Shown piece by piece: positions 18,464 to 20,019 of a DNA stretch of 64,000 nucleotides. This DNA comes from a virus, in the UHGV virus genome UHGV-0222911; one strand, 5' to 3'. The notes under the pieces are model-generated. The model was not told the origin of the DNA. It made no database searches and worked only from the letters and a program-made list of their open reading frames with translations. The position numbers were made by a program, and so were the translations under genes. Each line of letters starts with the position of its first letter. Position 1 is the stretch's first letter.

Positions 18464-18498
18464 ACCAAACCCGACCTCACCTCACCCCACCTCACCTT
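18464..18498. repeat. phased pentamer array 1: (ACCNN)x7 on plus strand
   Basis: accaa acccg acctc acctc acccc acctc acctt, strict 5-nt phase. Confidence 0.8.
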
Positions 18499-18519
18499 AT
18501 TAAAAGACCCTCTTAAAGA

Positions 18520-18548
18520 CCTTTTAAAAAGGAGCCTCCGAAGAGGCT
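18520..18548 (-). terminator. rho-independent terminator for gene 18560..19000
   Basis: Minus strand AGCCTC UUCG GAGGCU hairpin followed by CCTTTTT. Confidence 0.6.
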
Positions 18549-18559
18549 ACCTCGTCAAC

Positions 18560-19000
18560 TTAGAAAGGTTTTCTGCGTTGCTTGTTAATGTTAGCTTTCA
18601 TAGCAGCTAAATGGTTTTGCTGTTCAATCAGTCGTGAACGTTCTTGATGACTAAGTGCCATAGTGTTCACATTCTCAATTGCTTGAGTGGCTTGCTTTAA
18701 AGCTCGACCAATCTTACCAGACATTTTACGTTTTGCAATAGTTGCTTGATGCTTAGGTTCAACCACACGATAACCAACACCCATTGAAGCAACCAGATAA
18801 ATCTTCTCTTCTTTAAGAAGCTTTTCAATAAACTTCTCAAGTCGGTTTAGACGTGTAAGTGCATAAGCCTTCATTTCATCTTCGTACTTAACAATGTCAC
18901 CTTGATAAGTTGGCTTCACAATACCTAAGAAGGTGTCCATCTCAGAATGTGATACAGTGTCACCGTAACTAAACTTTGCTGCTAATGCTTTTGTATTCAT
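18560..19000 (-). CDS. hypothetical protein
   Basis: 146 aa ORF. Confidence 0.45.
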   Translation of the reverse strand: MNTKALAAKFSYGDTVSHSEMDTFLGIVKPTYQGDIVKYEDEMKAYALTRLNRLEKFIEKLLKEEKIYLVASMGVGYRVVEPKHQATIAKRKMSGKIGRALKQATQAIENVNTMALSHQERSRLIEQQNHLAAMKANINKQRRKPF

Positions 19001-19002
19001 AA

Positions 19003-19605
19003 TTAAACGTTACCTTCTGAAATAACTTCTACAGAAAAACGACCAAAGCGTGGACGCCAATCACCTACACCACAAAGGTTGCCAGCATTTTCCAGAACCA
19101 TCAGGAGTTCCTCTCGGGTAATTTGCTCTTCATCGAACATCAAACCAAACTCTACAGACCAATCACGGAAGATTGGACGGTAGCTCATAACTCGTGCTGT
19201 ACCAATCTTAACAGATTTAGCATAGATAAAATCTGGATTCTTAGCAAGTTCTTGTGGGTTTGCTGGACAGTTCTTGATAGTCATTGGGAAGACTACATCT
19301 GTCAGCATAATGGCTCGGTCAATTACCTTACCAAGTTTGTTGAGCTTTGCACCAGACTTGATACAAGCCTCAATCATCTCACCGTTCATAACAAAACCAA
19401 GTTGCTCATCGTAGTAACAAGAAGTTACCAGTTGGCTTTCTGCTAAGAGCGCATAGTCTTCGTCAGTCTTTTTACGTTTACTGGACAGAGACTTGTGATA
19501 TTTTGTCAGAGGGTTTAATGGGTCTGACAGCGTATCGTTATGGCTCAAGAAAGGACGAGTACCAGTGATTTTGATATTTAACAGTTTCATAGCATTTAGC
19601 TCCAC
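19003..19605 (-). CDS. hypothetical protein
   Basis: 200 aa ORF. Confidence 0.45.
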
Positions 19606-19702
19606 ACTTTAGTTGATTGTTAAGTTGTTTGTAAAGAACCCTCAACAGAAGACTCTTTAGAAACTTGGTAGATTTTTAACGTGGCTACTACCATCCACCC
19701 AT

Positions 19703-19792
19703 ACATTACCGGACTTTACCCCACCATGCCGAACCACACCTGACCAAACAACACCACACCGTACCAAACCTTACCCAACCAGACCTTATCTT
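19703..19792. repeat. phased pentamer array 2: 18 consecutive pentamers, 16 beginning ACC/AC
   Basis: acatt accgg acttt acccc accat gccga accac acctg accaa acaac accac accgt accaa acctt accca accag acctt atctt. Confidence 0.8.
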
Positions 19793-19864
19793 ATTAAAAG
19801 ACCCTCTTAAAGACCTTTTAAAAAGGTAAGTCTCATTTTAATGTAGCTGAGACTAACTACCCGC

Positions 19865-19954
19865 ACTTTACCGCACCGGACCTTACCGGACCGCACATCA
19901 CCGCACTAAACCGGACATCACATTACCCGACCACACCAAACCAAACACCACATT
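19865..19954. repeat. phased pentamer array 3: 18 consecutive pentamers all beginning AC
   Basis: acttt accgc accgg acctt accgg accgc acatc accgc actaa accgg acatc acatt acccg accac accaa accaa acacc acatt. Confidence 0.8.
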
Positions 19955-20019
19955 ACTTAAAAAACCTCTTAGAAGACTCTTAAGTGATGCTGGTGAGTAC
20001 CCGTTGGTTTATGCTGCTC

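Follow-up and report, generated by a model that had tools for sequence, protein, structure and literature searches.

What is the role of a short sequence box that recurs beside every pentamer array in the virus genome UHGV-0222911? We examined this question in a 64,000-nt stretch of that genome (hereafter the window, meaning the whole stretch), in which an earlier note, made from the letters alone, had described three arrays and their boxes as a modular regulatory unit. We found that the minus-strand region 18380-20047 is, to judge by its sequence, a type II Viral Interference Programmable Repeat (VIPR) locus of the same clade as that of phage SUSP1, and that the box is a conserved RNA hairpin on the 5′ side of the predicted guides of this locus. 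The identification of the locus together with the position of the box is in our estimation nearly certain; as to what the hairpin does, we lean modestly toward a mark that is transcribed at the 5′ edge of each guide.

Assignment of the pentamer arrays to a type II VIPR locus

The window region is 93–96% identical to wV8-like Felixounavirus genomes, and the genes around the arrays all lie on the minus strand. A period-5 scan across the whole window recovered ACCNN arrays only at 18454-18497, 19698-19790, and 19855-19955 (arrays and modules 1 to 3 in what follows), all on the plus strand; on the minus strand these read as the GGY/NN variable guide regions of three vrRNA genes. Together with vipr and a vap1-like gene, they would make up the locus as follows.

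19861-19955, minus strand: vrRNA-a repeat tract, 19 YNNGG units, several of them degenerate (TGT or AGT for GGT); NN series AA GG TT TT GT CG AA GA CC TT GC GA GC CC AA CC GC AA GC
19699-19788, minus strand: vrRNA-b repeat tract, 18 YNNGG units; NN series AA CT TG AA TT AC GT GT TT CA GT TC AT GG AA CC AA AT
19003-19590, minus strand: vipr, 195 aa, a RAMP-fold protein polymerising on GGY motifs, with a match to PDB 36pp
18560-19000, minus strand: vap1-like accessory gene, 146 aa, phrog_5926, with a SUSP1 open reading frame (ORF) at the same position after vipr
18460-18499, minus strand: vrRNA-c repeat tract, 8 YNNGG units; NN series AA GA GG GA GA CG TT AT

VIPR, an RNA-guided DNA-silencing system encoded by phages, was described in two 2026 preprints from the Doudna laboratory (bioRxiv 10.64898/2026.04.26.720920; 10.64898/2026.04.26.720927). 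According to these, Vipr is a minimal RAMP protein, with an RRM core, a G-loop, and a thumb, that polymerises on vrRNAs with one GGY per protomer, a vrRNA consists of 9-16 YNNGG units and an invariable tail of ~40 nt, recognition of double-stranded DNA falls to the NN dinucleotides with a skip of one nucleotide, and the complex silences competing mobile elements (phages and satellites). For SUSP1, vrRNAs of ~100 nt were found to co-purify with Vipr and to silence their targets, and the discoverers proposed VIPR as an ancestor of CRISPR effectors.

The window Vipr aligns over 195/195 residues with the "SUSP1 Vipr protein" of PDB 36pp_D at ~97% identity (phmmer E 1.5e-127), and the published RNA-contact residues H17, E71, M72, R138, C173, D177, W178, and R179 are all kept; position 175 is V in both proteins. 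The mechanical ORF list starts this gene with a GTG at 19605, and the solved SUSP1 protein corresponds to an ATG at 19590 (MKLLNIK...). The vap1-like ORF begins 3 nt past the end of vipr, its N-terminus (MNTKALAAKF) is identical to that of the ORF in the SUSP1 locus, and homologues of Vap1 adjoin vipr in some distant loci as well. Searches of Pfam, PADLOC, and PDB gave no match for Vap1, and Pfam, PHROGs, PADLOC, and NCBIfam give no function for either protein; the VIPR preprints describe the vap genes of type II systems as encoding predicted DNA-binding proteins.

The arrays themselves agree with this assignment. The published definition of vrRNA genes asks for at least four YNNGG units in tandem beside vipr, GGY being conserved and NN hypervariable, and the window has tracts of 19, 18, and 8 units. 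Across the 85 unique array modules that we collected from ~35 Felixounavirus, Mooglevirus, and Suspvirus loci (the relatives referred to below), the pentamer unit has G at 85%, G at 98%, and Y at 100%, and the NN positions use all 16 dinucleotides with an entropy of ~1.9 bits. A scan of IMG/VR for (ACCNN)x8, made without reference to Felix-like phages, returned many contigs with GC contents of 38-60% and heterogeneous arrays, which often stand in long tandem series and, in the contigs that were mapped, have their C-rich strand antisense to the adjacent gene. Because a Vipr homologue occurs on the same contig as the arrays in ~37 unrelated contigs, adjoining them where mapped, the arrays and the 195-aa protein form a conserved pair.

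From its near-identity to SUSP1, the window phage would be expected to express its vrRNAs and to silence targets with them. The VIPR system is already known and the phage falls within the experimentally studied SUSP1 clade, so that recognising the locus adds little in itself. A term search of the two preprints found nothing on a hairpin at the 5′ flank, on the processing of a precursor, or on promoters of vrRNAs; the box is a modest addition, an undescribed detail of a known system. GenBank records of relatives label the arrays only as "repeat_region", and they go unmentioned in the genome paper of Felix O1.

A conserved box adjoins each guide array

The earlier note had described a conserved box beside each array, and this description held up. 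A 37-bp exact repeat (CTTATTAAAAGACCCTCTTAAAGACCTTTTAAAAAGG, plus strand) occurs at 18496-18532 and 19790-19826, and a third, diverged copy with the core GTCTT(C)TAAGAGG(G)T(Y)TTTTAA occurs at 19953-19985. A 25-mer of the box occurs exactly twice in the 64 kb, compared with none expected from 100 shuffles, and the reading of box and array as a repeated module, not incidental low complexity, was likewise borne out. The coordinates given earlier were one base off, with TTATT starting at 19791 and not 19790 and the third copy at 19953 and not 19954. In the minus-strand reading, every copy adjoins an ACCNN array on the 5′ side of its repeat tract. Counting a fourth copy upstream of vipr, the boxes fall into three types.

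18496-18532, minus strand: box type A, copy 1, a hairpin (free energy, dG, -12.2 kcal/mol) that ends at the first repeat of vrRNA-c
19790-19826, minus strand: box type A, copy 2, whose first bases are the U-tract of tail-a (the vrRNA-a 3′ tail) and whose remainder forms a hairpin of 12-16 bp that stops at the first vrRNA-b repeat
19946-19995, minus strand: box type B, a long hairpin directly 5′ of the vrRNA-a repeats, which includes 19953-19985
19632-19659, minus strand: box type C, the fourth, diverged copy, a hairpin UAAAGAGUCUUC-UGUU-GAGGGUUCUUUA located after tail-b and before the start codon of vipr

Type A has the sequence CCTTTTTAAAAGGTCTTT-loop-AGGGTCTTTTAAT(A/G)A, type B has CATCACTTAAGAGTCTT-loop-AGGGTTTTTAAGTGATG, and type C, upstream of vipr, has TAAAGAGTCTTCTGTTGAGGGTTCTTTA. 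The two type A copies of the window are identical over 37 bp, and the arrays that they adjoin share nothing.

Conservation of the box in relatives carrying the arrays, on which the earlier proposal depended, was confirmed once the modules of relatives were aligned: all but a few of the 85 unique modules carry a type A or type B box, and boxes of these two types likewise flank all four vrRNAs of SUSP1. Variation in the box across relatives, both in sequence and in length, falls nearly entirely in its middle, the apical loop. Outside the locus, the box core (up to two mismatches) was not meaningfully enriched in the 64 kb; the only other close match, at 37156, proved to be an unrelated terminator-like hairpin. 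Rfam has no family for the arrays, the tails, or the box.

The box is conserved as an RNA hairpin

The earlier note had pointed to a direct repeat within the box, GGTCTTT...GGGTCTTTT. This repeat is real; G·U wobble allows GGUC to pair with GGUC, so that in RNA its two halves form the arms of a hairpin. All box types fold in this manner. In an alignment of 32 distinct boxes of types A, B, and C, ten stem pairs were identified and 92.7% of the cells were paired; in five of the ten pairs, both partners differ between types (U-A/C-G, A-U/U-A, A-U/G-C, and others). The covariation score was 0.42 versus 0.23 in shuffles, with 0/500 shuffles reaching it and every slid register far below, although the changes lie between three paralogous types and therefore represent few independent events, and the shuffle null ignores relatedness.

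Predicted stabilities differ among the types. The type B box of the window (dG -18.1 kcal/mol, z -5.0) was matched in stability by 0/200 shuffles, and the orthologous SUSP1-type copy is more stable still (dG -20.5, z -6.3); for type C, dG was -10.2 and z -2.1. Some type B boxes of relatives, including bumzen and Moogle, carry a 24-nt insertion at the apex (AAATTATATTCGATAGAGTATCTCAT; L001 2150-2200, L006 1240-1290), and in this variant the stem is kept and an extra apical helix is predicted (z -5.1). In all three types the hairpin is more stable when read in the vrRNA sense than when read from the plus strand (-12.2 versus -7.1 kcal/mol for type A, -18.1 versus -15.0 for type B, and -10.2 versus -5.5 for type C), because the apical stems need G·U pairs. 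On the grounds of covariation and strand bias, the box is a conserved RNA hairpin. Besides the small number of independent covariation events, two features of type A count against this: its hairpins are AU-rich and only marginally more stable than shuffles (z -0.5 to -1.8), and the rare single substitutions at its G-C pair are mostly uncompensated.

Tails, terminators, and promoters around the guides

Each predicted guide is followed by a structured 3′ tail, and a sigma-70 consensus scan of 18300-20250 (hexamers 16-18 bp apart, at least 9/12 matches, and a -10 whose second base is A and whose sixth is T) located three promoters.

19820-19860, minus strand: vrRNA-a 3′ tail, a hairpin AGUCUC-14 nt loop-GAGACU with a GGUA/UACC extension and then a U-tract; terminator-like
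19660-19698, minus strand: vrRNA-b 3′ tail, a hairpin GGUAG...CUACC
18413-18459, minus strand: vrRNA-c 3′ tail, a hairpin GGCAG...CUGCC
20020-20047, minus strand: sigma-70-type promoter of the whole VIPR locus, TTGACA-16-TATACT, 11/12; the same site is a promoter in the AYO145A record
18380-18408, minus strand: sigma-70-type promoter belonging to the next operon, with hexamers TTGACA-17-TATTTT; annotated as such in the records of AYO145A and ASO1B
19606-19635, minus strand: weak sigma-70 site overlapping the 3′ arm of the type C box upstream of vipr
18526-18551, minus strand: intrinsic terminator after vap1, AGCCUC-UUCG-GAGGCU (18548-18533) and U5, the U-tract being the start of box copy 1

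The three tail types share one architecture, in which a (U)AGC..UUAAAAAU loop stands between the two sides of a stem, and the stem sequences AGUCUC/GAGACU, AUCGGA/UCCGAU, GGUAG/CUACC, GGCAG/CUGCC, and, in a satellite element described below, GUCG/CGAC are compensatory. In relatives, tail-a has compensatory AUCGGA/UCCGAU stems around a conserved loop, and the stem of tail-b covaries with those of tail-c (GGCAG/CUGCC) and of the satellite tail (GUCG/CGAC). The published vrRNA tail is a hairpin plus a pseudoknot (VIPR preprints); in tail-c, pairing of the loop UAGCCUUAU with AUAAGCUA farther downstream would give a candidate pseudoknot, as read by eye. The submitters of the ASO1B record predicted, with TransTermHP, a rho-independent terminator somewhere within the same intergenic region as tail-a.

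These features redraw much of the arrangement proposed earlier. A terminator hairpin beside each box was confirmed for module 1 only (18551-18526). The hairpin beside module 2, with its 14-nt loop, bulged extended stem, and U5, is the tail hairpin of the upstream vrRNA and was not called by the terminator scan; the inverted repeat beside module 3 spans the -10 of the strong promoter, has no U-run, and is not classed as a terminator. The supposed promoters after arrays 2 and 3 are the starts of vrRNA 3′ tails, and a real promoter follows only tail-c (18408-18380). The fixed order of terminator, box, array, and promoter is not supported: a promoter and not a terminator lies upstream of module 3, and tails follow the arrays. 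The promoter at 20020-20047 lies ~25 nt upstream of box B. Within the boxes that flank the guides, the consensus scan of 18300-20250 found no sigma-70 promoter, and TTAAAA-17-TTTAAT, the best candidate on visual inspection, has no A at -11.

The role of the box

Our slight preference is for the view that the box, once transcribed, acts as a hairpin for punctuation or processing, with which the 5′ edge of each guide is marked. It would be transcribed within a multi-unit precursor from the promoter at 20047-20020 and would fold into a hairpin of 12-20 bp, the 3′ foot of which would adjoin the first repeat and sequester part of it. The hairpin might thereby set the start of the guide, either as a boundary of the Vipr filament or, more likely, as a processing site for a host RNase, or as both; RNase E or RNase III would be suitable enzymes, given that the 3′ foot (UUUUAAUAAGG) is AU-rich and that the stem reaches up to 20 bp. 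The first bases of type A (CCUUUUU) would double as the U-tract of the preceding terminator-like hairpin. In vrRNA1 of SUSP1 (L137), 12 units start exactly at the 3′ foot of box B, and because 12 units and a 40-nt tail equal the reported ~100-nt RNA, the mature RNA would comprise repeats and tail without the box. The presence of a box at every unit boundary, including the one before vipr, supports punctuation, and we count in the same direction the single vrRNA of the satellite, which has its own promoter and terminator and no box. Guides of other VIPR types are separated by hammerhead ribozymes (VIPR preprints).

Several points weigh against a punctuation hairpin, besides the weak type A stems and the few independent covariation events noted above. 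Both the transcription of the box and its processing or boundary role are inferred. The box is absent from the vrRNA of the satellite and from distant VIPR loci such as L085, so it is not required for Vipr loading. Finally, because a terminator precedes vrRNA-c and the internal tails are terminator-like, the downstream guides need either read-through or promoters of their own. This last point favours the view that each box is a dedicated DNA-level promoter for its vrRNA, at which RNA polymerase, perhaps with a phage factor, would start in the first repeats and end at the tail hairpin and U-tract. A restart would be sensible where type A boxes follow a terminator or terminator-like hairpin with its U-tract; the AT-rich box holds the TTAAAA-17 bp-TTTAAT candidate, from which, as read from the sequence, a start would fall in the first repeats; and promoter-like elements are visible by eye upstream of arrays in L018 (TGATATAAT) and in L085 and the satellite (TTGACA-17-TATTAT or TAAGAT). 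We nevertheless consider a promoter for each guide rather unlikely, given that the consensus scan was negative in the guide-flanking boxes and the candidate -10 has no A at position 2, that the hexamers of type B are worse and a strong promoter already lies just upstream of it, that relatives tolerate a 24-bp insertion between the putative -35 and -10, and that the motif precedes no other gene in the 64 kb. Compensatory stem changes and dependence on G·U pairs would also be unexpected of a promoter. In another view, the box has no function and is simply the junction of a duplicating module, homogenised by unequal crossing-over and gene conversion as phages gain, lose, and exchange guides. Such a junction would fit the varying number of modules between near-identical phages and the identity of the type A copies over 37 bp beside unrelated arrays. 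It would leave unexplained the strand-specific stability, and would not account for three diverged types that keep pairing through double changes, for a stem retained around a 24-nt insertion, or for variation restricted to the apical loop, and we regard it as quite improbable.

A DNA-level role could also be sought in the direct repeats. The GGTCTTT N4 GGGTCTTTT repeats lie 11 bp apart and might serve as an operator for dimeric Vap1 or for a Cro/CI-type helix-turn-helix (HTH) protein encoded at 17446-17775, which would then autoregulate the guides; the half-sites are one helical turn apart, type II vap products are predicted to bind DNA (VIPR preprints), and the HTH regulator gene lies ~700 bp downstream of the locus. 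Operators conserve sequence, however, whereas the arms of the box change and stay complementary; the likeness of the direct repeats decays in type B (GTCTT versus GTTTT) while pairing is kept, and the spacing of the halves varies from -1 to +24 bp, so that an operator appears very unlikely. The unit as originally proposed, in which terminator, box, array, and promoter would activate or insulate the gene downstream of each array, drew on the fixed order of elements, the conserved box, and the real promoter that follows module 1. The arrays are here assigned as guide RNAs to which Vipr binds, what follows arrays 2 and 3 is vrRNA tail sequence in place of the supposed promoters, a promoter and not a terminator precedes module 3, and Felix O1-type phages keep a module without vipr or vap1; regulation of a downstream gene by the module is thus unsupported, and the identification of the locus largely refutes the cis-regulatory model, which we find barely credible.

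A more specific form of the processing hairpin would make the box a dedicated maturation and assembly signal of type II VIPR arrays, recognised by Vipr, Vap1, or a specific host RNase, such that the precursor would be cut at the first repeat and the register of Vipr loading set there. We think this unlikely. Were it true, the box would be the functional counterpart of the CRISPR repeat/Cas6 step in a system proposed to pre-date CRISPR, and the copy before vipr would couple guide processing to the stability or translation of the vipr-vap1 mRNA.

Guide matches in E. coli satellites

Chromosomal sequence similar to tail-b and part of an array is carried by 65 of 5426 complete E. coli genomes. The corresponding satellite islands are ~11 kb in length and encode recombinases, an HNH endonuclease, and tape-measure and baseplate genes; this tape-measure/baseplate class is the main target of SUSP1-clade guides according to the VIPR preprints. 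We retrieved the satellites by way of their own vrRNA tail and took guide matches from seven loci of the 65 genomes. Units 2-13 of vrRNA-b match the left end of the satellite at 11/12 positions by the rule that skips 1 nt, with the one mismatch falling at the degenerate unit 8, and units 10-18 of vrRNA-a match the satellite tape-measure gene (scored 9/10). Unit-shuffled guides reached these scores in 0/300 cases for vrRNA-b and 1/300 for vrRNA-a. Over the full guides the match is only 61% (vrRNA-b) and 53% (vrRNA-a), below the NN criterion of at least 80% used in the preprint. These matches are supportive of, but not conclusive for, targeting of E. coli satellites by the window guides.

Other searches for targets were negative. 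Exact 10-unit seeds of vrRNA-a and vrRNA-b found nothing in IMG/VR and only two chance matches, without extension, in GTDB representative genomes; a mismatch-tolerant scan of the retrieved loci and the window gave background only, with no self-target, and the eight units of vrRNA-c had no significant match. We also observed that the degenerate units of vrRNA-a (19861-19955) are concentrated in its 5′ half and that the satellite tape-measure match lies only in its 3′ half (units 10-18); the 19-unit vrRNA-a may be an old guide fused to, or decaying beside, an active one. The vrRNA of the satellites (L156 19950-20180; islands L156-L162) is preceded by a promoter (TTGACA-17-TAAGAT) and starts with a leader of ~40 nt that is rich in C; its 13 units are followed by a tail hairpin that covaries and by a terminator of its own, and it is accompanied by neither a vipr gene nor a box.

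Variation of guide modules among relatives

In relatives, the flanks and the box are conserved and the arrays are unalignable. The number of modules also varies, with 3+2 in bumzen and Moogle, 2+2 in AYO145A, and a single module in Felix O1/FO1a, which are without the two genes at 18560-19605. Near-identical phages differ by having two to three modules upstream of vipr and one to three downstream, or one to two orphan guides where vipr is missing. Guide modules are thus rapidly gained, lost, and orphaned in Felixounavirus genomes. The orphan guides (L007 2430-2540 in Salmonella phage FO1a, and also L028, L122, L128, L136, L143, and L148) lie in Felix O1-type phages without vipr or vap1, where one to two complete vrRNA genes with box B, repeats, and tail stand after the ligase gene and before the operon that comes next; the genome that carries them encodes no cognate protein. 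These guides may be remnants, or they may be users of the Vipr of a co-infecting phage.

Several IMG/VR contigs (L013/L116, L020, L066, L117, and L075) carry very large guide arrays, in which as many as 17 vrRNA-like tracts stand in tandem or tracts reach 67 units. The separators in these arrays are unlike the box (TAATG; TTTAATGAATTTAATTT; ~12 nt in L066), and each contig has a distant Vipr homologue. A motif resembling a tRNA T-arm (GGTTCGATTCC) follows the repeats in L077 (817-890) and L112 (4895-4960 and 5034-5100), which hints at a tRNA-like 3′ processing element; ARAGORN called no tRNA in these tails of L077 and L112. Two records named for unrelated hosts, Staphylococcus phage SA1 (H70) and Campylobacter phage A126 (H87), contain Felixounavirus sequence that includes the VIPR locus and are probably mixed or contaminated assemblies.

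Relation to known systems

The closest described system is the type II VIPR locus of SUSP1, which resembles that of the window in Vipr (97%), layout of the vipr-vap1 operon, GGY/NN tracts, tail hairpins, boxes, and the class of satellite matched by its guides. The two differ in guide layout, with two vrRNAs upstream and one downstream in the window versus one upstream and three downstream in SUSP1, and in guide content; two of the window tracts have 18-19 units, compared with a published range of 9-16. The alternation of variable guides with a conserved structured element, which plausibly sets guide ends, beside a RAMP-fold gene is reminiscent of CRISPR arrays, with their repeat hairpins and their pre-crRNA processing by Cas6 or host RNases. 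Unlike CRISPR, however, a VIPR locus has no spacer acquisition machinery and the guide is itself a pentamer repeat; by length, the 5′ hairpin would be excluded from the mature RNA and the 3′ tail retained, and no endonuclease activity has been reported for Vipr. If the box directs 5′ maturation or the loading register, it would matter for vrRNA biogenesis and for the use of multiplexed VIPR guide arrays as tools.

As a separator of guides, the box is like the hammerhead ribozymes interspersed in vrRNA arrays of other VIPR types, although it is a simple hairpin without an Rfam match and would need a trans-acting nuclease. In phage T7, the RNase III hairpins of the early genes (R1.1 and others) punctuate the polycistronic transcript made by host RNA polymerase and define mature RNA ends. 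No sequence similarity between these sites and the box was detected, and the AU-rich type A stems (12-16 bp) are short for RNase III. The promoter-early stem-loop (PeSL) cassettes of T4-type phages place an early promoter and a terminator stem-loop around variable genes and act as recombination scaffolds. The VIPR modules are similar in that conserved intergenic elements flank cassettes that vary between relatives, vipr-vap1 being absent from Felix O1; the box differs in having no detectable promoter and in that the repeated unit is a guide RNA gene, and we do not class it as a PeSL.

Other candidate functions for the arrays were also rejected. T7-type primase sites (GGGTC/TGGTC) do not fit a unit whose fifth base is unconstrained and whose neighbour gene is Vipr. 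An R-loop or G-quadruplex replication origin, a binding site for a TRAP-like ring protein, a Rho rut site for antisense transcripts, decoy sites of the Chi-like or BREX (GGTAAG) kind, and type III toxin-antitoxin (ToxI-like) repeats were all dropped once the neighbouring gene was recognised as Vipr.

Other repeats in the window

Elsewhere in the window, dense imperfect tandem repeats of 10-11 bp (for example, TCTGTTAAGAT x 7.9 and CTTAACAATTT x 2.8) occur near its end, at 62200-62760 and 63256-63295. This cluster might represent iterons, or else a terminal or regulatory region. At 11109-11167 and 11380-11450 there are tandem repeats in two copies, of 30 bp and 27 bp, that probably lie in a coding region.

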